A stretch of DNA of 64,000 nucleotides, taken from NCBI RefSeq assembly GCF_036588685.1, contig NC_086380.1, forward strand, positions 58,156,001-58,220,000, read 5' to 3'. Source of the stretch: Mytilus trossulus. Its lineage: Eukaryota. This document shows positions 5,178 to 62,080 of the stretch, piece by piece. Numbering within the stretch: position 1 is the first letter of the stretch; every line of letters starts with the position of its first letter. Made by a program: the position numbers and the translations under genes. The notes beneath the pieces are model-generated. The model saw only the letters and a list, made by a program, of their open reading frames with translations. It made no database searches and was not told the origin of the DNA.

Positions 5178-6866
5178 ATGTCGAGTAAATTAACTGTATG
5201 TGGAGTATGTGATTATCAGAACATTAACAAACCATCAGTTGCCTGGTGTTCAGAATGTGACGAAGGACTTTGTGAAGAATGTAAAGTGCATCATGCAGCT
5301 TCAAAGGCGACCAGAAACCATAGCATTGTCCTACAATCCGATTTCCAAAATCTACCTTCTAATGTATTGGAAATTACTCAAACATGTCCAAAGCACGAAG
5401 AAAAATACCAGATATTTTGTAGGAAGCACGATTGTCCATGTTGTAGGCTATGTGTTGTTGAAACACACAACGATTGCAAAGATTTGAACGCGATAGAGGA
5501 TGTAATTAAGAATGTAAAATCTTCAAGTGCATTCTTAGAGATGGAACAATTATTGAAAGAACTTTCCGAAAATTTGCAGAATATAAGAAAAGATAGACAG
5601 AAAAACATTAAAAGTCTGACGGAGAACAAAACAATCATAGAAAAGGAAGTTCAGCAGGCACGAATATTGATTAATAATCATTTGGATAAAATACAGGAAA
5701 GTCTGATGAAAGAGCTTTTTACCGCAGAGGAAAAGGAAAAAAAGAAAATAAGCAATTTAATATCATCAATACAAGAGAAAGAAAAAGAGATTACAGACTA
5801 TCAAACTACTCTTGATAGAATAAAAAAGCATGCCTCAGACCTCCAGACATTTTTGGTTATGAAGCACATTCATCGAGATGTCACGAACAAAGAGCAATTT
5901 CTGGAATCTCTAATAAAAGAAGAGAAACTGAACCATATTTCAATAACTTGGAAAAACGAAAATATTACGGAGACCCTACCAACTACAATCAAGAAGATAG
6001 GAACCATAATATTAGAAACCAGGGCAGGTGAAGCAATATCAACAAGTAGGAAGTTAAAACAAGCACAGATAATGGCGCTTACTGCACCTATTCCTATTAT
6101 TGATGACATCAAACTTACTTTAGGACAAACCGTGAAAACAATTGGAAATGATATCAAAAGCTGTTGCTTATTAGCTGATGGAAGAATGATTTTTTCATGC
6201 TATCTCAGTTGCAAAATTCACGTGTTCAAAACCAGCGGGATTTTGGATTTTACACTTGAGACAGGATCCATGACATCTCATATCCACTTTATCGAACAAA
6301 GTCAAAAACTTGTCGTAACAACTGGGCCTTACAACCAATGCATTAAGATTATCGACATGAAAAACAGAAAAACTGAGAAATCTATTGTTGTTGGATCAGA
6401 GATTTATGGAATTGTTCATAAAGACGGACAATTGTTCTATAATGGATATCATGGTGGGTTGCGTGTTGTAAGTGTAGATGGCCAATTGAGTAAACGGTTG
6501 GTAAATGTTACTTTGAAACAAAATAGCAGCATTGCAATATGTTTACATCAACTTTATTATATAGGCGAAGATGATTCAATATCATGCTGTGATCTTGAAG
6601 GTGGTGTTAAATGGAAATTAGAGCAGAAACCATTCCTTTCAAACATACGAGGCATAACAGTGGACAATTACGGACGTGTTTACGTATCAGGATTTTGGTC
6701 TCACAATGTAGTCGTAATTTCACCAGATGGAAACAAACATCGATTACTGCTGTCAGAGAAGGATGGTCTTCAGAGTCCACAGTCTTTGTTCTTCGACCAA
6801 ATAAATAACAAATTACTTATTACAAATCAACAAACTAACGCATTTGTTTATGACGTTTCAAAATGA
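5178..6866 (+). CDS. RING-less TRIM-like protein (B-box1, B-box2, coiled coil, NHL-like propeller), copy 1, 562 aa
   Basis: ORF 5091..6866 trimmed to the conserved MSSK start, which follows a polypyrimidine tract and TAG acceptor (ttttttgtag c ATG). CGVC..WCSECDEGLCEEC..HH..H = B-box1; CPKH..FCRKHDCPCCRLC..H..C = B-box2; E/K/Q-rich heptads; RGITVDNYGRVYVS / PQSLFFD propeller repeats. Confidence 0.9.
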   Translation: MSSKLTVCGVCDYQNINKPSVAWCSECDEGLCEECKVHHAASKATRNHSIVLQSDFQNLPSNVLEITQTCPKHEEKYQIFCRKHDCPCCRLCVVETHNDCKDLNAIEDVIKNVKSSSAFLEMEQLLKELSENLQNIRKDRQKNIKSLTENKTIIEKEVQQARILINNHLDKIQESLMKELFTAEEKEKKKISNLISSIQEKEKEITDYQTTLDRIKKHASDLQTFLVMKHIHRDVTNKEQFLESLIKEEKLNHISITWKNENITETLPTTIKKIGTIILETRAGEAISTSRKLKQAQIMALTAPIPIIDDIKLTLGQTVKTIGNDIKSCCLLADGRMIFSCYLSCKIHVFKTSGILDFTLETGSMTSHIHFIEQSQKLVVTTGPYNQCIKIIDMKNRKTEKSIVVGSEIYGIVHKDGQLFYNGYHGGLRVVSVDGQLSKRLVNVTLKQNSSIAICLHQLYYIGEDDSISCCDLEGGVKWKLEQKPFLSNIRGITVDNYGRVYVSGFWSHNVVVISPDGNKHRLLLSEKDGLQSPQSLFFDQINNKLLITNQQTNAFVYDVSK

Positions 6867-7376
6867 TCAGCAAGACCAGCTCTACAATTGAGACGAATAG
6901 TGGAAATCGTGCGGCGACTTTTGCGTTTTTTTTTATATATGATAAAATCATCTTAGATCAAAAATTTAAATAAATAAAAATTATCATAAAGACAAAATCT
7001 ATTGACAGGTCGATAGTTAGAAGACTGTCAATCTTTATCCGAGTACCTGTCATTAAGTCAGGTTATTGTTCCTCTCTTTTGTATGTTTTGAGCAGAAACC
7101 AAAGAAGATAGATAGAAACTAAACAGACCAAATTATCATCAATACAAACTAAACAAAGCAGAGATTTTTCTTTTGAAATATTTTCTCGTCTACAATGCTG
7201 AAGGAAGGACGGATATACATATAGACCGATGATTTTTTTATCATATGGCTTTTATTTTTTTCAAATCATGAGTCAGTGATCAAGGTTACGTTTTCTTGAT
7301 AAGTATCGAATCTCAGATACTTATTGACTTATATCAATATCTCAAATGTATTTTGTGTAAACCAAGACAACAATGA

Positions 7377-9600: not shown

Positions 9601-12057
9601 AACAAAACAGACATAATAGGTCAAATTGCAAAAATCAGGGTACAGCAGTTATTACCATGTCACAATCTCAATTAAAAAAACAAACAATATTTAAATAAGA
9701 AGTAAAGTTAACAACCACGTTCATAGCTTACTTATTTCTGAATATTAAATCGACCCATAAAGGATTGAAATATTTGGAGTCCTGTGAATAAATGTCTAGG
9801 TTCACATCAACTCTGGTATAGAATCGCATAACTACAAACGTCACACAGGTAGAAATATCAAATAATTTTGTCGTTCAAAGAATTTTCAAAATTATAATAG
9901 AACAATAACATAATGGCGGGATGTTTAAAAGAACAGAGCCACGTCATACGTACCAAAGAAACACATAAAGTCACACATACAAAGCACACCGGCAGAAATG
10001 AAAGATAGTACAAACATCAAATTGACAGGATGCATCATTACCGAGCCAGGTCAAATGGATATCATAAAAAAACACAAACAGTAAAAGTAATATTAATAAT
10101 AGAACAAGGACATCTTTAGAGAAATTTAATACAGCAAATCATTGACAACTGTTAAGTAATAGTCTAAATAGCAAATGGGAACAGATGGAAAATATAAAAA
10201 CAAATGGCATGGCTCATTCAGTTCACTTATCTGTCACACTTTAAAAGTGCTCTGTATCTATTGTTTATCATTGTCACGATCTGGTAAACTTTGACAAAAA
10301 ACTCCAGATTTGATAAGCTTGAGATCAACAACCACTAAATGACATATTATATGTCAATGATACGTTACAGATGTGTAATAAATATAAAAAAAATATGCAT
10401 GCAAGAATTAGTTAAGTATAAATGCATGCATTAGTTCAATAATTTCGATAACACTAAAATTTCCAGGAAATCGTTTCATATGTTTTCAAAGTAATGATTG
10501 TCATTATGGGGCAGAATTTAATTGTGGACCGTATTCGTTCATGACGGTTTTCTCTGTTCAAATAAATAAAATTGATTAAGAAGTCTCCATGACACAAAAC
10601 AGACTCATTTATCTGGCAAAGTGGAAATGTTGGTTGATAATGTTAAACGTTTGATTTAATCAGTTTTTACGAACTTCATTCCCCTTTTCGAATTTACATT
10701 AAAAATTGTTCTTTGTTAATACCTTTTTATTACATTCTGACTGCAATGACCCGACGCTGTTGCAATTGCATTTAACACAACTTGTGGATTTGGATCTTTT
10801 CACGAAATCCACTTTCCTATCTTATGATAATTATGTCACCCATATGTTAATAGGGGTGAATAAACTCATCATAGATACCCGGCTTAAATTTTGTATTAAC
10901 GCCAGACGCATGTTTCGTCTACAAAAGACTCATCAGTGACGCTCGAATCTGAAAAAAGTTCAAAAGGCCAAATAAAGTACGAAGTTGAAGAGCATTGAAT
11001 ACCAATATTCCTAAAAGTTTGATATATTATTGTTTTTGGTCCGATTTTACATTCCACTTTTTTGTCCAGCTTAGTTCTCGGAGATTACTTGACACACATG
11101 GATAAAAATACGCCATTAAGACATACCCCATCTGTAGAGGTGCACATAGACTTTTGAATTTTCAAGATAACCGTCGTTACCATGGAAACCGTCTAAATGT
11201 GAAAAAATGAAAGAAAAAAAAATCCTTATAAACTCATCGTTAATCAACCCAACCGTAACAGATACAACCCAAACCTTCCCCGCCGTAATAATAATATGAA
11301 CTGTAGAACTGGTTTCCGTTTGAATTTTGAAGATTGCTGCTTTACCATGGAGATTAGGCTAAAAGTGTAATATTGACCCATATCAGATAAAACGTCAAAT
11401 GAACATTTTCTAGCAAATTTTAAGTTCGACCCCGGTTAAATGTTATTGAAATGTTATCTGTCTTTGAAACATTTAGAGTAGCCGTTGTTTACATGGAAAC
11501 AGCAACAACAAAAAATTCATAAAAATAAAGTTCTGTAATCAAGTTTATGTGTATGAGATTAAATACAACTATGTACTACTAAAATCTTCTAGTATGTGCT
11601 AGAAGAAGCCAAAAAAATATGTAAACCTGCTTTTATTCTATACAAAATAGTGATTGATTTCATTTTCTGACTTGAGCAATTTAACTATCCGTTAGGGTTT
11701 CAAGTAAATAGAGGTATGCTTAATAATATATGAAGGCCTTGAGCAACACAGCTGAGCAATGAAAACACACTAAAATCTGGGGGTGATTTGAAAGTAGATT
11801 CTTTTTCATATATACCATCGTATGTAGGAATAAACAGACAGGGCGTATAAACTACTATCACTGTAACAGCATATAAAAAATGGCACACATCAGAAAGTAA
11901 AGATGCATTTGAATATTAAAAATAGTTAATCTAATCTTAAACTTAAATTAAACACCACGAAAAGTGTTCGGCCAAAAATCCCTTTTAAATGTACATTTGT
12001 ATAGCGTCAAGTTTTTACTCGAAACAGAACAGAGAATGATCACGGATAAGGTTGTTA

Positions 12058-12164
12058 TTTTGAATTTACCCGCGATATAATACTGATCAGGAGGTACATA
12101 CTGGTCACGTGTCAAATACCTGCATTGGATCAGTTGATAGACATTTTCTGGATCTCAGGTAAAA
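12058..12164 (+). promoter_or_regulatory. Putative core promoter and non-coding exon 1 of copy 2 (intron 12159..13596)
   Basis: GGTCACGTG at 12103, TCAGTT Inr-like, tctcag|GTAAAA at 12159. Confidence 0.65.
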
Positions 12165-13597
12165 CAATGTTTAAACACTTACAATGAAATGTTTGATAAG
12201 AAAATTATTTGTTTCTAGCAAATAGAATGATTTATTATTATTTTTTAATTTTCATTTTTGATGCAAGTCAATAAAATCAAGGATTTTAAATTCTACTTTC
12301 GTTTTCCCCTTTCATATAAGGTTAAAATATCCAAACATAGTGTATGTAAATAAATAGCACAAATAAATAACAAAAAACAAAACCACGAAGATGTAGCATT
12401 GACAAAATCATTTTCATATCTTATTCTTAATGAAAATTCGACATTTGTTAATACCACCAATGTTTTTTGGAGTACAGACAAGTATGTCCACAACTATGTT
12501 GACAATTATAAATACTTTGTATAGACACTGATTGAACCCTTTGTGTCTCCTACCGCTTTTTACCCAAAAACGAATTTCTTCAAAAAATATTCCAGGTAAA
12601 GCCTCAAAAATAAAAATAAAACAAGTCATGAATAAATATACTTGAGTATTGTGGTACTTGACCATGAAAAAGTGGAAGGGCACATGGGTTCTTCAAGGTC
12701 GGCTTATCGCTATCAATGACAGGACATTTGAAATGTAACGTACACATGATAGTTTGGAAAAGGGATAAAGTGACAGATTAAGTGGTGTAACATGCCACCT
12801 ATAATTCTTCAAGAGAGTTTTTATAAGGATACGATAACATGCCGAGAACTTAACAGTCGCCTTACACGCGTCATCTGATATCATAATAGCTCATACAGTT
12901 GCCAGTGTATTTATAGACACTCTAGTAAACACTGCACGGACAAATGGAGTTTCCTCATAAACAAGGACGTTACTACATGAACGAGAGTAGTCATGGGATA
13001 AGCATATTTCTATACCTAGTCAAAGGCTTCTAATATGTCATTTGACCTGGATTTTTAATGTTGATCTTTAACCATTCCTCAGTTAAAGACCATGATGATA
13101 CGAACACATTTTTACTTGTACAAAAGGTAAAAATATTTGTACCATGGCACTGGAAAAGTACAGTCAGTTATATGTTACAGATGTATCTTGTCAAACTAAC
13201 TTTGTTTTCTTCTCTTTTCATACTTTTTTAAATACTGTTACAAATAGTTGAAGCAGGAACTTCGATCTAGAAATAAAATGACGGTTTTCAGTGATAATGA
13301 ATTAACGCCCGCCACATTATTTTTCTAGTTGGCAGTTTCTGTTTGATCGCCCATTGTGTGGCAATCATTTGCTTACGTGACTTGCACAAACAAAATTCCA
13401 TAGAACTTTAATTTGCATTTACTTAAATAATGTTAATCGGTCCTTTTATGAAACACGATAGTATGTATATCCAGCATCCGTTGAATATTGATAAGAATGG
13501 ATTAAAATCATATCTGAAAATTTGTCTAACCATGCTAACCTAAGACAGACTTTTTAAAATGCAATTTTATGTTTTTTTAAATTTTCTTTTTTGTAGT

Positions 13598-15286
13598 ATG
13601 TCGAGTAATCTGACTGTGTGTGGAGTATGTGAATACCGAAACATCAGCAAACCTTCAGTGGTCTGGTGTTCAGAATGTGATGAAGGACTTTGTGAGGGAT
13701 GTAGAGAGCATCATGCTGCTTCGAAGGCGACTAGAATTCATAGTATTGTTCTACAATCCGATTACCAGAATTTACCTTCTGATATATTGAAAATCACCAA
13801 CACATGTTCAGAACACGATGAAAAATACGTTATATTTTGTAAGAAGCATGATAGTCCATGTTGTAGTCGATGTGTCGTTGAAACACATAACGATTGCAAA
13901 GATTTAAACGCGATAGATGACGTCATTAAGGATGTAAAATCTTCAAGTGCATTCTTAGAGATGGAACAAATGTTGACAGAACTTTCAGAAAATTTACAGA
14001 GAATAAGAAAAGATCGACAAGAAAACATTAAAATTTTACGAGAGAACAGGACAAACATAGAAAAAGAAGTCCAGCAGACAAGAAGCCTGATTAACAATCA
14101 TCTTGATAGGTTACAGGAAAATTTGATAAAAGAGTTGTATGACGTTGAGAAAAATGAAAACAAAATCATCACAAACATAATATCATTAATAGAAGAGAAA
14201 GAAAGAGAAATTATCAAAAGTCAAACTAATTTAGATAAAGTTAAAAAGCATGCATCAGACCTCCAGACGTTTCTGGCTTTGAAGCACATCCAACGAGATG
14301 TCAGTAACAACGAACAATTTATGGAATCGTTGATAAAGGAAGAGAAATTGAACAATGCATCTATTTCTTGGAAAAATGAAAATGCTTTAGAGATTTTACC
14401 TAACCAAATCAAGAAGATGGGAACCATAATTCTAGATACGAAGGCAGGTGAAGCAACATTAACAAACAGGAAAAACCAACAAGCTCAGATAATGCTGCCA
14501 AATACATATGTTCCTACCATTGATGATATAACACTTACTTTAAAACAGACCATGAAGACAATAGGAATTGATATCACAAGTTGCTGCTTGTATGATGGCA
14601 GGATGATTTTCTCCTGTTTTAATAGTGAACAAATTTACGTCCTGAAAACCAACGGGTCTTTAGATTTTACATTGAATCCTGGATCGCATACTTCGCATAT
14701 ATACTATATTGAAGAAAGCCAAAAACTCCTTGTAGCACCTGGTCATGACTTCACCTGCATTACAATTATTAACATGAAAAATAGAAAAACTGAGAAATCT
14801 ATTAAAGTTGGATCAGAGATTTATGGAATTGTTCACAAAGATGGAAATGTGTTCTATAATGGAGGCAGTCGTGGATTATGTGTTGTAGGTTTATATGACG
14901 ACGACTCTATAACACAGCTAGTTAACGTTAGATTGTCTACATATAGTAGCATTGTCATGTGGTCAGATAATCTTTACTTTATAACCTATGATGATACAGT
15001 ATCATGCTGTGATCTCCAAGGGACATTGAAATGGAAATTAGAGCAGAAAAATATTTTTACAAAGGCTCGAGGTATAACAGTGGACAATTATGGACGTGTT
15101 TACGTATCGTGCTATGGATCTAACATGGTCGTCGTTATTTCACCAGATGGAACCAAACACAGGGTGTTGCTGTCAAAGAAAGATGGTATTAAAAACCCAC
15201 AAGCTTTGTGCTTCGATCAAAAAAGTAACAAGTTACTTATTGCAAACAAATGCAATGACGCATTTCTTTATAACGTTTCAAAATGA
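13598..15286 (+). CDS. RING-less TRIM-like protein, copy 2, 562 aa
   Basis: Same architecture; ORF 13559..15286 trimmed to MSSN after ttttttgtag t ATG. Confidence 0.9.
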   Translation: MSSNLTVCGVCEYRNISKPSVVWCSECDEGLCEGCREHHAASKATRIHSIVLQSDYQNLPSDILKITNTCSEHDEKYVIFCKKHDSPCCSRCVVETHNDCKDLNAIDDVIKDVKSSSAFLEMEQMLTELSENLQRIRKDRQENIKILRENRTNIEKEVQQTRSLINNHLDRLQENLIKELYDVEKNENKIITNIISLIEEKEREIIKSQTNLDKVKKHASDLQTFLALKHIQRDVSNNEQFMESLIKEEKLNNASISWKNENALEILPNQIKKMGTIILDTKAGEATLTNRKNQQAQIMLPNTYVPTIDDITLTLKQTMKTIGIDITSCCLYDGRMIFSCFNSEQIYVLKTNGSLDFTLNPGSHTSHIYYIEESQKLLVAPGHDFTCITIINMKNRKTEKSIKVGSEIYGIVHKDGNVFYNGGSRGLCVVGLYDDDSITQLVNVRLSTYSSIVMWSDNLYFITYDDTVSCCDLQGTLKWKLEQKNIFTKARGITVDNYGRVYVSCYGSNMVVVISPDGTKHRVLLSKKDGIKNPQALCFDQKSNKLLIANKCNDAFLYNVSK

Positions 15287-16915: not shown

Positions 16916-16988
16916 TAATTCCAGAATAAAAAAGAATACATAAAACAACTTAGATTAGCACATAGAAACCGCACAGCCGAACAACGCA

Positions 16989-17840
16989 TTGTATGTCTTA
17001 CAAAACAATTTGTCAATAGAATGTCAACTTGATTTATTTGACAAAATGGTTTTACCAATACTGTTATATGGATCAGAAATATGGGGTTTTGAAAATATAG
17101 ATATACTTGAACGTGTACATTTACAATTTTGTAAAATGATTTTACATTTAAAACAGTCTACTCCAAATTGCATGATGTATGCAGAACTTAGCAGATATCC
17201 CATTACTGTGTCTGTAAAACTGCGAATGATTATTTTCTGGAGTAGACTACTTAATGGAAAAGAAAGTCAAATTTGTGCTGTATTACATATATACTTGTAT
17301 TTTTATATTATAATGATAACGGAATAGAAACTAAGTAGATATCATATATCAAAAATATTCATTGATAGTTGTGGTATGTCCAATATATGGAATGCACAGT
17401 TTGCTCATAAATGGGTGACTGAATGTATTGAACAAAAACTCAAAGACCAGTTTCAACAAGAATGAAAGCTTTTGTTGCAGAATCACTTAAAACTTTATGT
17501 TATCGTATTTTGAAAATTTAAAAAATATTTTTCTGTTTTACCTTACAAATCCATTTTTACATTATTCAAATATATATGTGGTAGTCACCACTTGCCGGTT
17601 GAGTCTGCATGGAAGGTGACAAGATTTAGCGAAAGAAGACAGAATCTGCCGTCTCTGTGACTCAAACGACATTGGTGACGAGTACCATTATACTGGTACA
17701 TGAATTGTGAATTTTTTAAGTTTGAAAGAAAGTTTTTCTGGCCGTCATTCAAAATGTTTACTGGAAAAACAGAAAAATAAAAAACGTTACTTCTTCTATC
17801 GGACAGAAAATTAAAAAAAAAACGAATGAGGTTGTCGTCC
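16989..17840 (+). mobile_element. Decayed 3' fragment of a non-LTR retrotransposon (CR1/L2/Crack group) ORF2
   Basis: LFDKMVLPILLYGSEIWGF..LERVHLQFCK..LKQSTPN..YAEL post-RT motif; downstream HHLPVE..RICRLCDSNDIGDEYHY Cys/His motif; stops and frameshifts. Confidence 0.8.
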
Positions 17841-18436
17841 AAATTGCTAGATTACCAATATACGGTATTATGCTATAAATATATAATGATATAGAAATGA
17901 CATCTCCTTGAATGACGCAGCCTCTCTGATATTTAAGGAAAAAAAATGATTTTTCAAGTTATACACAACAGAACCTAAAAAATTCCAATACCTATGAGAA
18001 CAACAGATGAATTTCCCCCATAAAAAGACAAACTTGACATTTAAATTCAAACAACTTTCTAATTCCATCTTGTTTAGCAAAATACAGAAAATATGTTTCT
18101 CTCTCTCAAATTACAAATTATTTCTTTTCTCTTTCAAAAATTACAATTTATTTCTGACTGAAACAAACTACTAGACAACATCATAAATAGTACCTCAGTA
18201 GACTCTTCAAGTTCAAATGTTCAATCTCAAAACATCAATGTTAAATGAAATTTATCATATTATATTAAACCAATTTTACATTTGTAACATTAATTCTATT
18301 TATATTTGAAAATGAATATAATATGAATTCAATGTACGTCCTGTCAGAAATTTTAGTACATAATCAGTAATTTGCTAAAGGTAGTAACTATGTCTAATAT
18401 ATAAAACAAAAAGAATTATCAAGGATATGCTTGTTA

Positions 18437-18538
18437 TTTTGAATTTAATTGCGATATTTCACTTATCAAATAGTACGGACTGGTCACATGTGCAAATACC
18501 TGCATTGGATCAGTTAGACAATTTCAGATAAAGTAATG
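18437..18538 (+). promoter_or_regulatory. Degenerate promoter/exon-1 module of copy 3
   Basis: GGTCACATG at 18482; short deletion; donor position reads cag|ATAAAG (18528). Confidence 0.5.
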
Positions 18539-19976
18539 TTTTGAACACTTACAATGGCATGCTTGTAATACAAGTAGTTGATTTGTTTCTAACAAATATG
18601 ATTATCATAATTATGTTTTTTAAATTTCATATTAAATGCAAGTCAATAAAATCAATGACTTTTAAATTCTACTTTCGTTTTCGCTTCGCGTTTAATGTTA
18701 AAGTATCCAAACATTGGGTTTGTAAATAAAAAGCACAAAATTAATGATAAAAAAGACCAAGAACATAGTTTTTAACACCACTAATTTTATTTTGAGTACA
18801 GACAAATATGTCCACCTGGAAAATGTTAGGATCTTAAGATCTGCATAATTATACAATCATTCACAATTAAAAATACATTGTATAACACTGATTATACAGT
18901 ATGTATCTCCTACTGCTTTTTACCGAAATTCGAAATTCTTTCAGTAAATACGCAAAAACACAAGTAATGAATGCATTATATACTTGAGATCACTTGAGTA
19001 TTGTTTTGATTGATTGATTATTTCATGCTTTATCATGTTAACGTGGAAGGGCAAATACATACAATAGATAGATGCATTCGCTAGCAAGCTTTACATTACT
19101 ACTTGAACGGGAGAAGTCATAGGATGAGCATATTTCTATACCTAGTCAAACACTTTTAGTATGCCCTTTGACCTTGCTTTAAAATGTACTTCTAATGACC
19201 TTTGATCCGTTCTCAGTTTAATCCCGTGATAAAACAAATAAATGTTTACATGTATCATATTAAGTAATGATATTTGTAGCACACCACTGTGCACAAGTAC
19301 AGTTTCATGTAAAATATCAATAATTGTCTTGTAAAATAACTTTATTTACTTGTCTTTTTCATACTTTTCAACATGTTTAATTGTTGGTTTTTCTTTGAAT
19401 ACTGTTACAAATAGTTGGAGGAGGAACTTCTATTCCGTAAATAAAGGAAGATCAATGAAGATAAATCAAAGATCGTCACACTAATTTTCCAGTCGACAGT
19501 ACTAACATAAAGTTTGAAACAGAAAAAAAATGTAGTGCCACGGAAACAATACTATTTGTTCGTTAATTGTGTGGCAAGCATATGCATACATGACTTGCAA
19601 CAACAAGATTAAATAGATAAAATTCAGAATGGAAATGGGGAATGTGTCAAAGATACAACAATCCGACCAAAGAGCAGATAACAGTCGAAGGCCTTCAATG
19701 GATCTTCAATACAGCAAGAGAATCCCGCACCTGGAGGCGTGCTTCAATTGGCCCCTTAACAAAATGTGTAATAGTTCAATTATAATGGACATCATACTTA
19801 ACTCCGAAAAACATCAAAGAAATTAAAATTAAAAATCATTCAAGAATAACAAACGCCAGAGGATTCTAATTTGGTGCAAGCACGCAAAAATGCAGCGGGG
19901 TTTAACCTTAATTTGCATTTACTTTAAAGAAAAAAAAAAAAAAAAAACTCTTATGAAGTATATTTTTTTTTGTAGC

Positions 19977-38214: not shown

Positions 38215-38278
38215 TATATAATATGAATCCATTGCACGTCTTGTCAGAAATTCCAGGACATAATCATTAAACACAGAT

Positions 38279-44933: not shown

Positions 44934-45506
44934 GTTGTCAATACAAATATTGAAATGGTCATAATGAAATCCGTGTGATACAGTATGTTTTAAAGGATTA
45001 GTCTTTCTCCTGTACATCTTTGTCAGTGTCCTCTTCATCGTCCTCATCGTCTTTATCCTCAGTGTCACTATACGTTTCAAGGTAATCATCATCAAATAAT
45101 TCATTAAATTGATGTCGATTTTTAATGAGAATACGCCGAATTTGAATTTCGTTATCTGTATTGTTTTCAACAACATCCTTAATTTGTCGTACAATGTCAG
45201 AGCGCACATTGCTTTTATCTAGGGGAACAATCAGTTTCAACAATTCAGTATAGCGTTTAAAAAACTGACCTTGAACTATAGGGCTTATTTTTTTATTGCT
45301 TTGTCATGTTTGTTGAATTGCGTCTTCCTCATTCATACCCTCTTTCTCGTACTTTTCGTATTTTTTATCCCAAGTACGGTATCTTTCGCTGTATCAATGG
45401 CTGCATGTAATATGGTTTTGTATCCTTCATTGTCGTCTATATTAACATATTCACTACTATCGTCTGAACCACTATCATATTCAATCCATTCTAAGGCTGA
45501 CTTTTT

Positions 45507-47782: not shown

Positions 47783-47858
47783 AAAAGAACACAAAGATCT
47801 AGATTAGAATGCATATTTCAAATCGCTCATAGTCGAAGTATCATAGATTAGCTTGTCA

Positions 47859-47966
47859 TTTTGAATTTAACCGCGATATTATACTCATCAGAAAGTATGT
47901 ACTGGTCACGTGTGCAAATATCTGCATTGGATCAATTGATAGACATTTTCTGGATCTCAGGTAAAA
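47859..47966 (+). promoter_or_regulatory. Putative core promoter and non-coding exon 1 of copy 6 (intron 47961..48885)
   Basis: GGTCACGTG at 47904, tctcag|GTAAAA at 47961. Confidence 0.62.
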
Positions 47967-48886
47967 CAACATTTTGAACACTTACAATGACATGATTGAT
48001 AAGTAGTAGATTTGTTTTTCGCAAATAGAATCAAGTTTTATAATTTTTGATTTTCATATTTAATGCAAGTCAAGTAAATCAAAGACTTAAAGATTCCTCT
48101 TTCGTTTTCGCTTAGCAAATAACATGTATACGGTTTAAATAGTTTATATTACTTATCACATATCTAAACATTGGGTGTGCGAAAGAATAGTAGAAATAAC
48201 TACTTAAAAAACCACGAACATGTAGTATTGATAAAATCATTTTCATTTTTCTTGTATTTCATGTATCTTCTTTTAAATGAAAATTTGAATTTGTTCAAAC
48301 GACTTATTTGAATGTTATTTTGAGTACACACTAAACTGTTCATCTTGAAAATGTTAAAATCTTAAAAGCTGCATTGACAATTGATAATTGACCTTGCCTC
48401 AAAATGTACTTCTGTTGGTCTTTACCCTATCCCCAGTTTAATCCTGTGATTATACAAACAAATGTTTACTTGTATCATAAGTAATGATATTTGTAGTTTG
48501 GCACACGAAAAAGTACATTTCTATGTCAAAGATAAATGTTCCAGATTTATCTTGTCAAATTAACTTTGTATACTTGTCTTAATATACTTGTTTACTTGGT
48601 GTTTTATTTACATACTGTGACAAATAGTTGATGCAGGAACTTCTGTTACAGAAATAAAAGGATGACAATTAGTTAACGCCTGCCACAATAATTATTTAGT
48701 CAGCAGTATTACCTGACATTTCACAACTTACTCCTGTTCTGAAAAAATAATGAATATGTATATCAAGCATTCGTTGATTGTTTATAAAAAATGGGGAAAA
48801 AATCATATGTAAGGATTTGTGTAACCTCGAGCTCTGTCAAACTTTAAAGGCAATATTTACTCTTTAAATTTCTTTTTTTTTGCAGC

Positions 48887-50574: not shown

Positions 50575-51752
50575 ATTGATACAACATAACATAAATTAGC
50601 TTCTTAGTAGTTATAATATAATGATTGTAGTGAAAAGCGTTGGATTGGGCTCTTTGTTTTCTTACAAATGAACATCGGCAATTCTGTTGAATGAAAGATA
50701 TTATATATTTGAATACTTTATAGACGTATTATGTAATCAAGTCAGCTGTAGTCGCTCAAATTCCTTTTTATTTATTTATAAAAAGTTGTATAACTTGTTT
50801 TCCCATTCAACAACACAAAAAGATAAAGCCATTAGGGTTATGCTTAAAAATGTTTTAATAATTTATTTTATGCATCTTCTTTTTTATATTAATGATTTTA
50901 AGTTGATTATATCTGTCTGGCACGGCTGAATATTTGTGCACTTTTGTTTAGACATTAATTCATAAATTTCTCATACTAAAGTTCATGCCAAATTCATTTG
51001 TTCTCCTCTTTGTTTTTCATTGCTCTATTCTATTCTATTGCATCTTCCTTTCTTTTTTTCTTTGAGTGTTTTTTTTACATTAGTAGCAACATCGCAAATG
51101 GACGTTTCGTTGTATTAACATTGTATTCCTGCATTGATTTTTTTACCTAGATTATACCGTTGGTTTTCCCGTTCAAATGGTTTTGCACTAGTAATTGTGG
51201 GGCTCTTTATAGCTTGTTGTTCGGTGTGAGCCGAGGCTCCATGTTGAAGGCCGTACATTGACCTATAATGAGTCACTTTTATAAAGTATCATTTGGATGG
51301 AAAGTTGTCTCATTGGCACTCACACCACATCTTCTTATGTCTATTGAAAGGCTTCTTTATATCTATAATAATACCAAACTATAAAATGATCATTCAAAGA
51401 AATAGACATCGGCTTAGAGTAAGATTGCATATTTCGTGATCTATTGTTATAATAAAGAGGAGATGTGGATTATGACTGTCCAATAGTTTAATTAAAGTAA
51501 AACGGAGAAGAAGAGTGTTAACAAATTTTTATCCCAGTTCGGCTTTCCACATTAGTTTAATTGCATTGTGTCAGGACCATAGTTAGGATAACAGTTTAAT
51601 GTATTTCAAACGCAACCACAGAAAATTAAACTGAAAAAAAATGCGTTACATTGAACATTGTGCATGTTTATTCTGTTTACTCATTTTGGAGAATTCCGTC
51701 GGTATTTTATTGTTACCTGAATTTGTCTATTCGTTGTCGATTTGCGATATAA

Positions 51753-52041
51753 GGGAGCTATCATCTGATTTTTATGGAGCGGGTGGGGTGTGGGGGGGGG
51801 GGGGGGGGTCTGGGGGGCTAGGATGAAATTTGAAAAAATAGGCAAGACAGGAGTTTTGAGTAAAAAAAAAAGGCAGGATAAGATACTTGCAAAAAAAAGG
51901 CAGGTTAAACTAAAAAAAAAGGCAGGACTGAACAGAGAGAAAAATAAAAAGGCAGGACAGAAATTACAGCTAAAAAAATGCAGGACAAAATTTTTCAACC
52001 TAGCCAACCCCTTTCCCCTTAAAAATCAAATGGTAGCTCCC
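51753..52041. mobile_element. PIF/Harbinger-type MITE
   Basis: TIRs gggagctatcatctgattttta / taaaaatcaaatggtagctccc; TAA TSD; internal aaaaaggcagga repeats. Confidence 0.75.
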
Positions 52042-55000
52042 TAATAAGAACAAACTTAAATCAAAGAATGTATTTCGAGAATGTATTTTTCTGCAAATTT
52101 AAGATAGCAAACCTCGAAATACATTCATGAATTTAAAAATAGGTATGAAGGCAATAGTAGTTTGCCGTCGAATTACACGTTAGCGTATAGCTAAAAGTAA
52201 AAACACAAAAGTACTGAACTCCGAGGAAAATTCAAAAAGGAAAGTCCAAAATCATCGACGCTAGCATATTTCAACGTGTTTCAATTTTGGTAGGCACAAT
52301 GGTAAGAAATGGACATCTAGAACAGGAGAAGAGTAATCGGAAATTTCCGAACGCCAGCTTTACGAATTAAGACAACGTTCCCATTCCGACCAGACCATGA
52401 CTTTGTATAAAACAAACAGACACTCCCTCGCAATCAACTTTCTTACGAGACCGGCCATAATTGTTATGTGACTACCTATTTGTTTAAGAATGAATTAAGG
52501 ACAAAAGATACCGAAGGGACGGTCAAAATCATAGATCGAAAATAAACTGACAACGTCATGGATAAAAAAAAAAAAAAGACAAAAGGCAGATAAATAATAG
52601 ACTAGTACACAAGACACAACATAGAAAACTAAAGACTAAGCAACACGATCCCCACCAAAAATTAGGAGTGATCTCAGGAAGGGTTAGCAGATCCTGCTCC
52701 ACATGTGGCACTTACCGTGGTACTTATGTTATTGTTACAAATTCAGTATATAGTATAATTCGGTAAGTCACATTCGTGAAAACGGAAGGGGATTGTTGTT
52801 ACTACATAAGGAACATATCCGATATTATCTGTGAAACGGTAATTATAAATTACAATCGAGCAAGTGGAAGTTCTGGAGATGAAAACTCCGATTATGTTAC
52901 AATTAAATCAAGAGTTCCATGGCGTTCATTTCTTAGAAAGAGAGTTTTCTAGCTTGTATCATATAAAGTGATATTCCAGGTATGTTAACATCTTTCCTAT
53001 GTGTTTATTTACTGATGACCAACTTTTTGGTAGTTCATTTACATTATATTTACAACAATAATTTGACAAATAGGTAAGGTTGGGAAAAAAGTCACATTTA
53101 ATTATACATTGCATGAACACTCGATCTGTTGAAAATGATAAAACAGCAAAATATCGTGATAACTTATAATCAGAACATAGGCACAATCTCAACATCCATT
53201 TGTCTGCATGGATATATTTCCCTAGAAAGACGACCACTAGAGTGTGCCTGTTCAGTTTTGAAACCTTGCTTAGAACAAGACATAGAAAAATGTGCGCATG
53301 GTCAACCGACTTTTACAACTCTATGAAGTTACAAAAACATGCATTCAACTGCAAATTTCAAAGCGCTTAGACAATTCCAGTGCACCGTTACGATTCAAAT
53401 ATGATGTAATGGTATAGAAAAAAACTTGCAGCTGACCCAGCCTGAGTAACTATTGACCAAAACATGCAACATTTGAGAAAAATGACTGTAAAGATTTTAT
53501 ATATATATATATATATTTATATCTGCCGTCGCCATATTGGGATAGTCGTAATTTCAGTTACGATTATCTCTTTAATTATGTCCTATTTTTTCGACAGCAA
53601 CATTAGTGAATGGTCAAAACGGCTAAATCATAGCACAGACAGCGTATGACTCTCTTAACACACACCATGTGGACTGCACCTTGTACTTTGCTCAAAGTTG
53701 ATTGTCGTACGATACATTAAGAATGCAAAAAGAACAAATACGAAACTATTCATATTAATGCAAAAATACTCACCGTTTTCTTTTAGTCGCTATTTAAAAA
53801 AAAAGCGGATTTAAGGGGCCACCGACCCCAAACGGAGCTACGATACTAGTATATGGATAAATGGATCCTTTTTACATGCATATGTCCTAACGTTTTCTGA
53901 CTAGGCCCCAGGCAGCATTTTCAAATCATCCGTCAATTTACCATCATTGAAGCCCCTCTTGGAGGTATCAACATCAAACATAATGTCACCCAAGTGACAA
54001 TATTTATATCTCCGGTTCCAAAATAGACTACCATCTCGATTGGTTACTTCAACTTGATCCTTTTTATCGTTGACATAAAAAAAAATGTTCGTCTGGCGTA
54101 GATACAAAATTTAATTCTGGTATATATGATCAATTATAAAAGGCAGTATATGATCGGCATGCAATCACTAAAAAATAAAAAAACAAAACGTTAAAAATGG
54201 CAAGTGCCCGAAGCGTGTTTGGGGATCTACCTTTCAGTGCAGAAACAGTTAAAGCAGAATATTAGAAGGCCATCAATTTATAAAAAAACGAAATAGTTGA
54301 TTAAAGTTTAAACCAAAAAATTGAAATCAAATTTGAGATATAATTACATCTTATGTAATAATCCTGGGTTTTAAGTGGTTGATAGTCAGTGTATTTTTCA
54401 CCAATGTACTGTTATCAAATGAAAATCGTTCATTTCTTAACGCTACCTGGGTATATGCAAAAACGATATTGCCTTTTTTACTCTCTCTCTGCTGTGGTAT
54501 GTGCCAAAAACAAGGATCGTCAAGCGTTTTTGAAAGTTAACATTCGGTGTAATTTATTAACAGATATTGCATGTTCTTGATTACGGCGAGGGAAATTTAA
54601 CATTCTCTCGGCCTGAATTTTTCGCAAATACCACTCATTGTCATTGAGACCAAACGAAACACATATCCTAAAGATTTTGAACATTCTAAAATTTGATTGG
54701 TTAATAAATAGTCGAATTTTAACCAGGTTGAAAAACAATAGTTATATACATTATGATAACATGCTAATGTGTTATGGAATGTTCTGATTAGTACTTTATC
54801 GGTAAGATTGGTCATTTTTGGGCACCTAAAGCTTTTCAGTTATATCTGTCCATGTTTTACAGAAACGTATTTTGTTCAAACCAAGTTTTGTAAAGACTCG
54901 TTTTAAGTACGTTAACATATCCGTCAATTTTATGTGTTCAAACATTCTTCTCTAGATAAAACAAAAATGATCAATGATGTATATAAATAAGACGAAAGAT

Positions 55001-57370
55001 ACCAAAAGGACTTTAAAAATAATATATATAAGACAGATGTAAATTATGGTATGAGGAATTTGTCAATAAGAACAAACCACAAAACCAACCAATAGATATT
55101 GAACATTTAAACATTTGATTAGTTAATTGATAGTGGGAAACTGACAACGTCATTCCCCAAAAAGTGAAAAAGAGGTCATGCAACTCCCAAGCATATCACT
55201 TCTTAGCTGTGCAGATTTTCGTGAGACTTTTCTAATCAGACTTAGTAATGTCGTAGATTCAAAATTACACATCAGTTCCATTGTTATATTTCATTGTTTC
55301 TATTTCTGAAACAAACAAAATAGATCTATTGTTCAGATAACAATGCATTTTTACTTCAGGGTGTTACAAGGGGGTTTCTTGGTTCGAAAACCCGAAAAAA
55401 ACAGTCCATTGTTATTCATATCAATATCAAATCCAGTGGGCGTATAGTCTTGAATGAAACGAAACATTAAAAATACTGAAAGAGACGGTAACCGATCGAC
55501 AAAAAACATTTCGTAGATAGATACAGTTTACAACAACACTGTTTGAATGAAACCAAAGGTTCATCAACAAGGGACACTCTGCTGCATGTGTATTATATGG
55601 TTAGCAATGTGCCTGTTATCAGGGAAAAACTCCAGAGATAATTTCTCCAAATGTCTGTGTTTGACATAAGAAATCACAAGTAGAAATATAATCATCAAAC
55701 AGATAGCTGTTAACTAGTCTCCTTGATAATGTGTTAATACCAGTTTATTGATAATGAAGTGAAACAGCTTAGTACTCTGTATTTCTTTTTGCCTATTTTT
55801 TTTTTTTTTTAACTTTTAAGGAATTTTATAAAAATTAAAAAAAACAATATGTGGCCCAATTCATCAGGTTAAAAAGCAATCCAGTTGAGATAACCAAATC
55901 TGTTAATCGCTATTTTCCCAATGATTACGTTGTTAATTTCAATTTCAATGAAAACTACAGGTGCGCAATTAGTTTCTAGCAATCTTTTTTCAAATCACTC
56001 ATCTGTGCTGAGGAAAGAAATAATCAAAAAGTAAGATAAAAGGAAATTTTCGAAAAATTGCAATAATTGTAAATCATGCAGAGCTGTTACTGTTTTGATG
56101 TTTGTCTGCTGAATTCAACCTGTCCAGGTAGGAACTATTAGTGTAAGATAGATGATACATACACATCACGGTTATATAGTAAACAGACAGGTAAAACAAC
56201 TGCTGAAAATGTTGAAACAGGAAATGAAAGCCTAGTAGAGTTTTAAAAAGACATATCTATTTTGACCAATATGATTTTTTAATAAAATTGATAAAAAATT
56301 GTTTTTTTTTGCTTATATCTTTCTTTCGTGACAATTTTTGATGATATTTATCTATATTTATCTATACTTAGACATATGTTCCTGATTCACATTTCAATCC
56401 CATATTGAATTTCAAATTATGATATTTAGCTAATATTTAGTAAAATTGTCCGTAATTCCTCGTATTACTATCTCGTTAGAAAAGAGGCAACATATCATAT
56501 TTTATCTATTAGTGTTTTACTTGTAAATGTAAGCTGCCTATCTCTCCATACGTGTATTCATTTCTATTTCATATCCATGCCACGCTCCTTATGTTTAAAC
56601 ATTACCTGTGGCCCATTTGATTTTATGAACTTTTTAAGTAGCCAATACAAGTCAGCATTTTGATCTTTCATAGTTCATTCTAGAACCAGTAGCTTTTTCG
56701 AACAAGGCCAAAGGATATTTTAAACAAAAAACTAGAAATATTGCATTCGGAATACAGAAACTTCATTTCAAAAATTAAATTTAAAAAAAAAGTTGTTTAA
56801 TCATAAAAGTACACGCTTCTGTCTATGATCGTGCGAATTTAAGATAAAAAAAATTGAAGAGCTTTTGAGAAATGTCCTAGTGTTAAAAAAAGGTGTTATA
56901 ATTTTTAATAACTTTCGGATTACCCTTACAGAACGTAGATATCATCCTTAGTTTCGTTTTATATGAATTCGTCATGCCCTTGCTTTAGAGTTCTTTGTGC
57001 TTTTATTTGTTCTACGTCTGTGATATTTATAATGATACAAGTTTTGTCTATCATTTGTGCTGAAAAGTCAGTTCTTTTACAACTTATCAGTTAGACTGTG
57101 CCTAATGTGTTTTTTGTCTCTCTTTTGAAAGATTTATTAATCCAATTTGTCAAAACTATAAACTAGTCTAACCATCTTATTTAAAGATTTTACTATGCCA
57201 TGGTGACAATTACAATTTCTATTCTTTCAATAAGTATTTGTTTTTATTTTCTGACTTGAACAATTTAATGATATAGCTTTCTTATAAGGGGCAAAGTGAT
57301 TCAGACACATTATGGATTAAATGAGTGTCTTTAAAACAATACAGCTGAGCATAACAAACGCACAAATATA

Positions 57371-57587: not shown

Positions 57588-57958
57588 TATATTGGTGTGA
57601 TCTCAGTTGTTTCGAAAGTAAATTCTGATCCACATGTACCATTGTATGTAAGGGTCAACGGGCAGTACGTATTATAAACAACTATCACTGTAAGACTTTA
57701 AAATACGCACTCATTAAAAAGTAATGATCACAGACACGTGTCTCAGAAATTTTTCCCGATATATATAGTGAGAATTTTTTTCTGAGACAAGTGCCTGCAC
57801 TGAGATGCATTTAAATATCAAAAAATTATTAATCTAATCTCAAAATGAGATCACACATTTAAATAAGTATTCAGTGCAAAATTCCTATTTAATGTATAGC
57901 GAAAATTTACAGTTTTCACTCAAAACAGAATATAGAAGAATCACAGATAAGCTCGTTA

Positions 57959-58065
57959 TTTTGAATTTACCGCGGTATTATACTTAGGAGAAAGTATGTA
58001 CCGGTCACGTGTGCACATACCAACAAAAGATCAGTTGATAGACATATTCTGGATATCAGGTAAAG
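57959..58065 (+). promoter_or_regulatory. Putative core promoter and non-coding exon 1 of copy 7 (intron 58060..60390)
   Basis: GGTCACGTG at 58003, TCAGTT, tatcag|GTAAAG at 58060. Confidence 0.65.
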
Positions 58066-58217
58066 CGATGTTTTGAATACTTGCAATGGCATACTTGATA
58101 ATTAGTTGATTTTTTCTTGCATATTGAATCAGTTATTATATCTTTTCATTTTCATATCTAATGCAAGTCAATAAAAACAATGACTATAAATTCTACTTTC
58201 GTTATCGCATTGCATAC

Positions 58218-58705: not shown

Positions 58706-60391
58706 CATATAAGGTTAAAATATCCAAATATTGGGTACGTAATTTAATAGCACACATTGATAATTAAACAAAATCACGAACATAGTATATTATTGACAGT
58801 TTTGTTCGTCTTTATCTTATTTGAAACTTAATCTGTAATCACATAAACAACACGACGGGTGCCGCATGTGGAGCAGGATCTGCTTACCCTTCCGGAGCAC
58901 CTGAGATCACCCCTAGTTTTTGGTGGGTTCGTGTTGTTTATTCTTTAGTTTTCAATGTTGTGTCATGTGTACTATTGTTTTTTTCTGTTACTTTGTCTTT
59001 TTCAATGTGAGCCATGGCGTTGTCAGTTTGTTTTAGATTTATGAGTTTGACTGTCCCTTTGGTATCTTTCGTCCCTCTTTTTAATTGTTAACAACACCTA
59101 TATTTTTTGGATTTTTTAATGCATGTATTTGTAGATAGATCTTTTTGTGTTCTGTTAACATGGTTAAATTGTTCCTTTTAAAATTGTTACACGATGATGA
59201 CTGCTGTACCCATATTTTGACTATTTTATATAGTTTTATAGGTTTAATCCACAATTTTCTACATTTGAAAATGCCTGTACCAAGTCAGAAATATGACAGT
59301 TCTTGTCCATTCCTTTTTGATGTGTTTTGTCATTTGATTTTGCCATTTGAGTAGCATATACAATCATTATTTGGCAATTATAAATTCATTGTATTACATT
59401 GATGTATGTATCTCCTACAGCGTTTAACCAAATTAAGAGTTTTGGTTTCGTTTCAAGAAATATGCTGGTTAAAGACTTTAAAATGAAAGTAAAATACGTC
59501 ATTAATCATGTGACTATATTATATACTAGTACTTGAATATTGTGGTGCTTAACCATGTTTACAATAATTAAGTTCTTTAAGATTGGCTAATCGCTATCAA
59601 GGGCCGGACATTTGAAATGACGCAGCTAGGAACATGCTATGAGTGATTGAGGTGACTGATTTGGTGTTATAACAGGCCACATATAGTTCCTTTAGAGAGT
59701 TTTTTAATAACTTGCCGATAACTTAAAAATCGTCTTATACGATTCCATGGATTTAGCCCCCTTATTTCGACCTGAAGTTTTTTTTCAAACACTCATGTAT
59801 GCCCTTTGAACTTGCTTCAAAATGTACTTTTGAGATTTTTAACATGTTTTATCCCGTGATAATACAAAAAAAATGTTAACTTGAATCATAAGTTATGATA
59901 TTCGTAGGTTACACTTAAAAAGAACAGTCCAAGTGAAATATAGGCGATACAGATTTATATTGTAATAAGAATAATTTACGTTTTATGACAAAATGTTGTA
60001 GGAGGAACGACCGTTAAGGAAATTACAGTGGATTTTCAATGACGATAAATTAAAGCCCGCCAAAAGAATTTCCTAGTTGGCATAACTACCCATATCACCT
60101 GAGAGTTTGAAACAAACAGAGAAAATATCAGTGACACGGAAAAAACATGCTTTCTCATACATTTGGTGCAAAGCATAAGCTTAAATGACTGGCATCAACA
60201 ATATTTTATAGAATCTTAATTACATTTACTTAATATGTTAATCGGTCCTGTTATGAAATTTATTGGATATGTATAGCCAGCATCCGTAGAACGTTTATAA
60301 GAATGGGAAAAATCAAAGCCAAGGATTTGTCTAAGCTATTACAGAAATTTTAAAACAATATTTTACTTTTTACATTCCTTTTTTTTGCAGC

Positions 60392-62080
60392 ATGTCGAGT
60401 AAATATACTGTTTGTGGAGTATGCGATTATCAGCACATTAACAAACCATCAGTGGTCTGGTGTTCAGAATGTGACGAAGGACTTTGTGAAGAATGTAAAG
60501 TGCATCATGCAGCTTCAAAGGGGACCAGACACCATAGTATCGTTCAAATCTCGGAATACCAGAAGCTTCCTTCCAATTTATTAGAAATTACTCAAACATG
60601 TTCAAAACACGATAAAAAATACGTTATATTTTGTAATAAGCATGATAGTCCGTGCTGTAATCGATGTATTGTTGAAACCCATTACGATTGCAAAGATTTA
60701 AACGCGATAGATGACGTCATTAAGAATGTAAAATCTTCAAGTGCATTCTTAGAGATGGAACAAATGTTTACAGAACTTTCAGAAAATTTGCAAAGAATAC
60801 GAAAAGATCGACATGAAAACATTGAAAGCCTAAAGGAGAAAAGATCCAAAATAGAAAAAGAAGTTCAGCAAACGCGAATCCTGATTGACAAACATCTGGA
60901 TAAGTTGCAGGAAAGTCTGATAAAAGAGTTGTATGACACTGAGGAAAAGGAAAGCACAAAAATTAAAAACATAATATCATCCATTCAAGAAAATGAAAGA
61001 AAGGTAACCGAAGGCAAAACTACTTTAGATACAATAAAACAACATGCATCAGACCTCCAGACGTTTCTGGCAATGACACATATCCAGCAAGAAGTGAGAA
61101 ACAACGAACACTTTCTGGAATCCTTGATAAAGGAAAGGAAAATGAACAATGTTTCCATTACTTGGAAACACGAAACTGCCTTGGAAATCTTCCCTGTCCA
61201 AATCAAGAAGATGGGAACCATAATATTAGATACGACGGCAGGTGAAGTAACATTAATTAACAGGAAGAACCAACAAGCACAGATAAAGCTGCCTATGGTT
61301 CATGTCCCTACCATTGATGATATAAAACTTACTTTAAGACATACAGTGAAAACAACTGGAAAAGATATCACAGATTGCTGCTTTCTTCCCGATGGCAGGA
61401 TGATTTTTTCCTGTTACATTACTCAACTAATTTACGTCATTAAAACTGACCGATCATTAGATTTTACATTAACACCAGGATCGCGTACTTCACATATATA
61501 CTATATTGAAGAAAGCCAAAATCTCGCTGTATCATCTGGTCATAACCCCACTTGCATTACAATTATTAATATGAAAAATAGAAAAACTGAGAAATCTATT
61601 AGAGTTGGATCAGAGATATATGGAATAGTTCACAAAGATGGAAAATTGTATTATAATGGATATAATAAAGGATTATGCGTTGTATGCTTAGATGACGCCT
61701 CTATAACACAGCTAGTAAACGTTACCTTGAATCGATATAGCAGCATTGCAATATGTTCAGATCAACTTTATTTTATAGGCGAAGATGACTCAGTAGCATG
61801 CTGTGCTCTTAAAGGGACATTGAAATGGAAAGTAGAACTTAATACTATTCTTAAAACAGTACAAGGTATTACAGTAGACAACTATGGGCATGTTTACGTA
61901 TCGGGCTATGAATCTAACAAGGTCGTTGTGGTTTCACCAGATGGAAACAAACACAGATTGCTGCTGTCAGAGAATTGTGGTCTTAAAAATCCACAACCTT
62001 TGTACTTTGATCGAAAAAATAACAAGCTACTCATTGCAAACAAATGCAAAGGCGCATTTATTTATGACGTTTCAAAATGA
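60392..62080 (+). CDS. RING-less TRIM-like protein, copy 7, 562 aa
   Basis: Intact ORF starting MSSK after ttttttgcag c ATG; same domains. Confidence 0.9.
   Translation: MSSKYTVCGVCDYQHINKPSVVWCSECDEGLCEECKVHHAASKGTRHHSIVQISEYQKLPSNLLEITQTCSKHDKKYVIFCNKHDSPCCNRCIVETHYDCKDLNAIDDVIKNVKSSSAFLEMEQMFTELSENLQRIRKDRHENIESLKEKRSKIEKEVQQTRILIDKHLDKLQESLIKELYDTEEKESTKIKNIISSIQENERKVTEGKTTLDTIKQHASDLQTFLAMTHIQQEVRNNEHFLESLIKERKMNNVSITWKHETALEIFPVQIKKMGTIILDTTAGEVTLINRKNQQAQIKLPMVHVPTIDDIKLTLRHTVKTTGKDITDCCFLPDGRMIFSCYITQLIYVIKTDRSLDFTLTPGSRTSHIYYIEESQNLAVSSGHNPTCITIINMKNRKTEKSIRVGSEIYGIVHKDGKLYYNGYNKGLCVVCLDDASITQLVNVTLNRYSSIAICSDQLYFIGEDDSVACCALKGTLKWKVELNTILKTVQGITVDNYGHVYVSGYESNKVVVVSPDGNKHRLLLSENCGLKNPQPLYFDRKNNKLLIANKCKGAFIYDVSK

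Follow-up and report, generated by a model that had tools for sequence, protein, structure and literature searches.

Does each gene of a tandem array have one history, or do its parts have several? The question is raised by a 64,000-nucleotide (nt) stretch of the mussel Mytilus trossulus (NC_086380.1, positions 58,156,001 to 58,220,000), the whole of which is called the window here. It carries seven head-to-tail genes on the + strand at positions 5178-62080. The single coding exon of each gene measures about 1,689 nt, and pairwise identities among the seven copies are 75.5-82.3%. A preliminary description, made from the sequence alone, had read the copies as patchwork mosaics formed by segmental gene conversion or recombination. 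Our analysis indicates that the segments of these paralogs differ in history, very probably through repeated recombination of misaligned copies. The cluster extends beyond the window (c0, c8 and c9), and 2 of its 10 copies are frameshifted:

5178-6866 (+): copy 1, intact, 562 aa, B-box 1/B-box 2/coiled coil/NHL-like propeller
13598-15286 (+): copy 2, intact, 562 aa
19977-21662 (+): copy 3, intact, 561 aa; in its 3' part and downstream flank it clusters with c0 outside the window
32794-34479 (+): copy 4, intact, 561 aa; order 4/5-like, 4/7-like, 1/4-like; bridged by contigs of other samples
41239-42927 (+): copy 5, intact, 562 aa
48887-50574 (+): copy 6, frameshifted by a 1-nt deletion near codon 52; young partner is c9 outside the window
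60392-62080 (+): copy 7, intact, 562 aa; resembles c9 at the 5' end and c8 in the middle, but not c8 at the 3' end
33 kb before the window (-): c0, further copy
beginning 160 nt past the window end: c8, frameshifted further copy
window +84.6 kb: c9, further copy

No single tree fits the seven copies

The pairwise homoplasy index (PHI) for the seven copies was z = -17.3 (338 informative of 1673 ungapped columns; p = 0.0002, the floor of 5000 permutations). The signal was also present at third positions (z -8.8), at the 58 synonymous sites alone (p = 0.001) and in all seven six-copy sets obtained by leaving one copy out (z -7.8 to -17.7), and site incompatibility climbed with distance from 0.28-0.33 (up to 30 nt) to 0.52-0.53 (more than 200 nt). 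For trees, the gene was divided a priori into six equal parts. At nt 567-849 of the gene, the pairs (1,3) and (4,7) were found at 100% bootstrap and a constrained approximately unbiased (AU) test rejected joining copies 1 and 4 (p 0.0002); at nt 850-1132, the pair (1,4) was found at 100% bootstrap and the same test rejected joining 1 and 3 (p 0.005) or 4 and 7 (p 5e-5). Segmentation over all 945 trees saved 68 steps with seven segments, compared with at most 19 in 100 codon permutations, and 30 of 210 triplet tests were significant at p <= 0.001. One topology for the whole gene is thus rejected by bootstrap, constrained AU and tree segmentation, as the preliminary description had supposed.

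With two small exceptions, noted below, every shared peptide on which that description was built was recovered in the copies named. HSIVQISEYQ is common to copies 4, 5 and 7; copy 6, which had been counted with them, has ISEYQ but not the full motif, and carries the 1-nt deletion near codon 52. HSIVLQSD occurs in copies 1 and 2, HLDKIQESLMKELF and KKISNLISSIQEKEKEIT in copies 1 and 3, DIKSCCLL and FTLETGS.TSHIHFIE in copies 1 and 4, and HIYYIEESQ and TCITIINMKNRKTEKSI in copies 2 and 7. The DNA identity described for copies 4 and 7 holds as an exact run of 48 nt in the stretch KESTKIKNIISSIQE, although the sequence had been quoted with one residue off (copy 4 reads KKESTK). IGEDDS is indeed present in copies 1, 4 and 7, a weak case of sharing: the codons in common number two (GGC GAA), and a motif of this length cannot be tested by itself.

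Shared tracts and their age

Along the copies, the following shared tracts were delimited:

5334-5399, 13754-13819 and 20133-20198 (+): tract of copies 1, 2 and 3 between the B-boxes; 6 exclusive shared sites, 2 silent
5636-6017, partner 20435-20816 (+): tract of copies 1 and 3 in the coiled coil; 315/382 nt identical, 24 exclusive sites, 8 silent
33346-33633, partner 60944-61231 (+): tract of copies 4 and 7 in the coiled coil; 258/288 nt identical, 16 exclusive sites, 6 silent
33740-33972, partner 6124-6356 (+): tract of copies 1 and 4 in propeller blades 1-2; 204/233 nt identical, 13 exclusive sites, 3 silent
14678-14813, partner 61475-61610 (+): tract of copies 2 and 7 in blade 2; 122/136 nt identical, 7 exclusive sites, 4 silent

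The four main tracts (the last four lines) are 82-90% identical. Their synonymous divergence (dS) is 0.14-0.48, whereas the remaining copy pairs have medians of 0.70-0.83 over the same positions. The tracts date from old exchanges and have gathered differences since. Of the three strongest, two are in the coiled coil. Candidate 2/6 (dS 0.87) and 4/6 (p 0.24) tracts had no silent-site backing and were rejected.

A star-like tree might give a false patchwork if variable codons changed in parallel, if selection were convergent or if rates shifted by region. The inner branches are short, and motifs such as IGEDDS are indistinguishable from such an effect. We simulated clonal evolution on the best tree, with fitted site rates in place, in 60 runs each with no, moderate or extreme branch-by-region rate change. 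Extreme heterotachy lent the idea some support (mean z -2.2), but the minimum z was -2.8, -3.9 and -9.0, respectively, and none of the 180 simulations reached the observed value near -17. Against it stand also the PHI signal at silent sites (p 0.001), the 8, 6, 3 and 4 exclusive silent sites of the four main tracts, and young tracts with 1.5% divergence beside about 20% (see below). A false patchwork is already largely refuted, and we consider it highly improbable.

Assembly and other samples

Mosaics can also be produced by assembly, when reads from different copies or haplotypes are joined into chimeras, and mussel genomes are very heterozygous and hemizygous (PMC7653742). This possibility finds some footing in copy 7 and c8, 98.5% identical over 807 nt, 3.8 kb apart and read from the assembly alone. 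The in-window tracts, being 82-90% identical, were not built by the assembler from the partner's reads, and no two of the seven copies share an exact run of more than 65 nt. For copy 4, four runs were compared, using contigs from short reads, not long reads. A single 1652-nt contig from run X8 (33286-34937, 17 differences) and a single 942-nt contig from run X4 (33286-34227, 15 differences), each with its own variants, span both the 4/7 and the 1/4 tracts of copy 4. Run X3 was identical to copy 4 where listed and may be the source sample, and was therefore not counted. A separate species, Mytilus edulis, has a mosaic of its own, which likewise speaks against chimeras. The preliminary description had allowed that its mosaics might be assembly chimeras, a concern that is not borne out given tracts 10-18% diverged and contigs of two other samples bridging the copy 4 switch. 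Assembly chimerism is unlikely to be the cause of the mosaics, with a probability that we put close to zero.

Young exchanges, flanks and mechanism

In 9 of 9 copies inspected, including all seven in the window, a pyrimidine tract ending in TAG or CAG lies one base 5' of the ATG, which points to a likely intron in the 5' leader and a non-coding first exon upstream. Copy 7 and c8 have 19 differences in nt 1-223, 12 in nt 224-1030 (1.5%) and about 20% after nt 1380; flanking sequence of the two is 4.1% different on the upstream side and unalignable on the downstream side. The 5' end of copy 7 is nearly that of c9, whose upstream flank is not alignable with that of copy 7 beyond the splice acceptor. 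Between copy 6 and c9, there are 44 differences in nt 1-257, 29 in nt 258-777, 35 in nt 778-907 and 40 in nt 908-1683, followed by more than 3 kb of common downstream sequence. With 4 differences in nt 1278-1542, a portion of their propeller has diverged less than the non-coding flank (8.0%), suggesting later homogenisation. Downstream of c0 and copy 3, flank mismatch is 11.6%. The young patch and the shared flanks within the window are:

60392-60582 (+): young bounded patch of copy 7; 3 of 191 nt differ from c9, and 19 of the first 223 from its twin c8
50575-52254 (+): downstream flank of copy 6, common with c9; 8.0% mismatch over 1429 aligned nt
32160-32793 (+): upstream flank of copy 4, with its nearest counterpart before copy 1 (4596-5177); when the 1.5-kb flanks are compared, 853 nt align with 8.1% mismatch, versus 20% in the coding sequence
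59522-60391 (+): upstream flank of copy 7, common with that of c8 (63282-64000); 4.1% mismatch over 1028 aligned nt

Doubly bounded (A-B-A) tracts occur in copy 6/c9 (nt 778-907), copy 7/c8 (nt 21-223, matching c9), copies 4/7 (nt 559-846) and copies 1/4 (nt 953-1185), and may have been made by gene conversion or double crossover. Elsewhere, a terminal segment is shared together with its flank and the other end is unshared (upstream in copy 7/c8 and copies 1/4; downstream in copy 6/c9 and c0/copy 3), as would be expected from unequal crossing-over, partial duplication or long conversion. The original proposal of segmental conversion or recombination between paralogs is therefore supported for recombination, but not for conversion alone, since several exchanged ends carry flank. 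Tracts are about 60-400 nt in size, fall in all three domains and form age layers from 1.5% to 18% divergence. In the mechanism that we propose, short patches would be exchanged between misaligned copies by gene conversion or double crossover, and crossovers would fuse the 5' part of one copy with the 3' part of a second; these exchanges would be meiotic, undirected and driven by the tandem layout.

Several points weigh against this interpretation. A GENECONV-like test, a check that the preliminary description had suggested, was positive for only 4 of 21 pairs after the Bonferroni cut, and 3 of these 4 are in the B-box region, which is conserved, and slow substitution there can look like a tract. 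Tract limits were picked after seeing the data, and binomial p-values for the tracts are therefore optimistic. Gene conversion and double crossover look alike in one haplotype, two of the ten copies in the cluster are frameshifted, and the young pair of copy 7 and c8 comes from the assembly.

Other species and a second cluster

Comparisons across species used proteins only, not DNA. M. edulis P0002 is like copy 2 at aa 45-125 (75/81), like copy 7 at aa 160-270 (98/111) and like copy 1 at aa 315-561 (216/247), a mosaic with a triplet p of 0.0002. It comes from a separate genome assembly and arranges the same segment types in a different order. The other six cross-species triplets were weak (p 0.009-0.08). 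The blade-1/2 type of copies 1 and 4 has counterparts in M. californianus P0007 (43/53 aa) and in M. edulis (44/53 aa), as has the 4/7 type in M. edulis (28/32 aa). P0002 and P0123 of M. edulis have consecutive accession numbers on one 93.9-Mb contig, a hint of a differently composed array in that species.

A second cluster of the subfamily, at 67.6-68.5 Mb of the same contig as the window (contig C8), holds at least nine genes (L007, L009 and L011-L017) that are 79-93% identical, and is mosaic too, with 118 of 504 triplets at p <= 0.005. At the same threshold, 124 of 900 triplets combining the window cluster with the second one were significant, as were 35 of 792 combining it with contig 2; these signals are mostly explained by a recombinant major parent, and no exchange between clusters is therefore claimed. 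In the 1.3-Gb genome, at least 77 matches to the family were scored among 2625 candidates. Of the 120 protein homologs listed, all that are named come from Mytilus, and two genes nearby on the window's contig match proteins named for M. trossulus at 100% identity.

Sharing between species is also what would be expected if allelic recombination had taken place in one very polymorphic ancestral locus, or among hybridising Mytilus, and had been followed by duplication with little later exchange. The near-star tree with its short inner branches fits such a history, as do segment types common to several species (the 1/4 type in M. edulis and M. californianus, the 4/7 type in M. edulis) and the hybridisation in Mytilus that is discussed in PMC7653742. 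However, alleles of copy 4 in other samples differ at 17 of 1652 and 15 of 942 nt, far from 20%, and the young patch of copy 7 and c9 (3/191 nt) joins copies 24 kb apart that are about 20% different in the rest and have unalignable flanks. We consider an origin from ancestral alleles improbable, and retain recombination between misaligned paralogs as the explanation of the mosaics. Whole-gene trees and orthology calls for the genes of this family are misleading in practice.

Protein architecture

For the two B-boxes, the families PF22586 and PF00643 both matched in six of six intact copies (Pfam), and the B-box Cys and His residues are invariant in 107 homologs. The deposited proteins of copies 1-5 share the same start Met. 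Pfam scans of the copies found no RING family, and no C3HC4-type motif was found in six frames of the 64 kb; a separate RING exon was rejected for the window on the same scans. AlphaFold2, run with a 107-sequence alignment, predicted the B-boxes, a long helix pair and a 24-strand propeller at a mean predicted local distance difference test (pLDDT) score of 85. The predicted helices, at residues 117-218 and 221-247, form the coiled coil after the B-boxes, and the 24 strands form a six-bladed propeller with pLDDT >90. The top structural matches were the NHL domains of TRIM2, TRIM3, Thin and Mei-P26, at 13-16% identity; the match to TRIM2/3 NHL had an expect value (E) of 4e-14 and a template modelling (TM) score of 0.74, and many other propellers score too. 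The Pfam NHL model matched 0 of 7 copies and 3 of the 120 homologs listed. Because a RING is absent and the NHL model does not match, the array proteins were not filed as members of TRIM-NHL class C-VII, and are at most Brat-like 'incomplete TRIM' proteins. The predicted models suggest RING-less TRIM-like scaffolds in which the top face of the propeller would bind a partner.

Propeller loops and selection

The b-c and d-a loops make up the top, ligand-binding face of NHL propellers (PMC4015489). In the array, the ratio of non-synonymous to synonymous change (dN/dS) was 0.80 in the top loops, with every other class at 0.27-0.39. These loops take up 64 of 561 positions and hold 14 of the 23 hypervariable codons (top versus bottom loops, p = 0.004). 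Top-loop dN/dS in the second cluster was 1.21. Variability is greatest in the top loops, and exchange therefore creates new sets of them: copy 4 has copy 1-like loops in blades 1-2 beside unlike loops in blades 3, 5 and 6. New loop combinations, which the preliminary description had expected from shuffling, are thus a true consequence, but exchange is no denser in the propeller than in the B-boxes or coiled coil. PHI by domain was z -5.0 in the propeller, -6.5 in the B-boxes and -8.3 in the coiled coil; with the other two domains at least as mosaic as the propeller, exchange is not aimed at the loops.

These results bear on a directed diversifying system, which would aim exchange at the propeller loops in the manner of templated antibody gene conversion. 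Hypervariable top loops fit it, the frameshifted copies and relics of the array are possible donors, and crossovers within the propeller do occur (copy 7/c8, and a switch near nt 1105 in gene b67705 of the second cluster). The equally strong PHI signal in B-boxes and coiled coil, together with tracts that extend into non-coding flanks, argues against it, and the mosaic of copy 4 is the same in other animals and therefore germline and stable. Such a system is very improbable.

Site tests (M1a/M2a) were run in our own code, not PAML. Weighing against selection, twice the log-likelihood difference (2dL) dropped from 47.5 with one tree to 18.0 with 6 segments, both significant, and to a weak 6.7 with 12 segments, and the six intact copies with 12 segments gave no signal (negative values, the optimiser not having converged). 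The fall from 47.5 to 6.7 once recombination is modelled also means that selection tests on such genes are inflated. The second cluster retained a 2dL of 18.6, with 5 of 8 sites on top loops. Together, the data are suggestive of diversifying selection on the top loops, with relaxed constraint as the alternative. It is conceivable, if somewhat doubtful, that selection keeps new loop sets and that the partner would be a pathogen molecule. If the top face does recognise pathogens, the array would be a clean single-exon model of binding diversity without adaptive immunity, and would tie that diversity to the presence/absence variation of mussel genes.

Surroundings of the array

Each copy is preceded, at a distance of a few kb, by a related repeat (1086-1712, 3835-4014, 12055-12525, 18412-18950, 30565-31177, 38215-38739, 47835-48331 and 57935-58216), which may be part of the duplicated unit as well as extra homology for mispairing. 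Between c8 and c9, there are two decayed partial gene copies (L036 and L037, window +69.5-70.8 kb and +75.9-76.4 kb). Contigs from run X1, guessed to be RNA, tile the coding sequence of copy 4 and not the adjoining flanks, a weak hint of transcription. Other features of the window are:

16959-17324 (+) and 24485-24856 (+): short open reading frames (ORFs) without a Pfam match, possible non-LTR retrotransposon fragments by resemblance
39489-40161: 169-bp unit in four repeats, 90% matches
44778-46283 (-): broken ORFs with a weak Pox_A32 packaging-ATPase match (E 0.014, failing the cut-off), presumably a Polinton/Maverick-type remnant
53577-57358: 90-94% identity to sequence located 7-11 kb ahead of the window; probably a mobile element copied recently

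Comparison with known systems

Tandem paralogs in plant NBS-LRR clusters and in the vertebrate major histocompatibility complex (MHC) are re-assorted by conversion and unequal crossing-over and have variable binding residues. The MHC is also named in PMC4852459. Ligands and selection are proven in those systems, whereas in the mussel array both are putative. More doubtfully still, mussels may maintain RING-less B-box/coiled-coil/propeller proteins in very large numbers for an intracellular recognition that is combinatorial and inherited, with a segment pool older than the species being reshuffled all the time, blades swapped between tandem copies, and loop sets on the binding face that differ per species or haplotype; this would be an animal counterpart of plant resistance-gene clusters on a TRIM scaffold.

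In M. galloprovincialis, two domains are enriched among dispensable genes (false discovery rate 3e-13; PMC7653742, Table S52): the B-box, with 1133 in the genome, and the six-bladed TolB-like propeller, with 1410. The main text of that paper has no match for 'B-box', 'NHL' or 'gene conversion', and in the openly accessible literature searched we found none that describes conversion or mosaicism for the B-box/propeller genes of bivalves. The process is known, for example from zebrafish NLR-B30.2 genes, and we found no such report for the mussel family.

With TRIM-NHL proteins of class C-VII or subfamily C (TRIM2, TRIM3, TRIM71, Brat and Mei-P26), the array proteins share two B-boxes, a coiled coil and a predicted six-bladed propeller nearest TRIM2/3 NHL, and Brat is likewise without a RING (PMC4015489). 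TRIM-NHL proteins number three to five members per species (PMC3503706, PMC4015489, PMC9634614), whereas the mussel family is large and fast-changing, and lacks a RING and a domain between coil and propeller. Its propeller is 13-16% identical to NHL structures and hypervariable on the top face. Like the sea urchin SpTransformer immune genes (PMC5491942, PMC8634487), the array is a tight invertebrate cluster of mosaic sequences. The SpTransformer mosaic consists of repeats or elements with large gaps, whereas that of the mussel array is a gap-free homologous patch exchange in a folded multi-domain protein. The zebrafish NLR-B30.2 and finTRIM genes (PMC4852459) are similar in forming a large clustered family with domains that have different trees, and short conversion tracts have been proposed to combine substitutions in the variable recognition domain of NLR-B30.2. 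There, conversion varies by domain and NACHT is homogenised within groups; in the mussel array, exchange runs over all domains of one coding exon, and the variable domain, with a putative recognition function, is the propeller.

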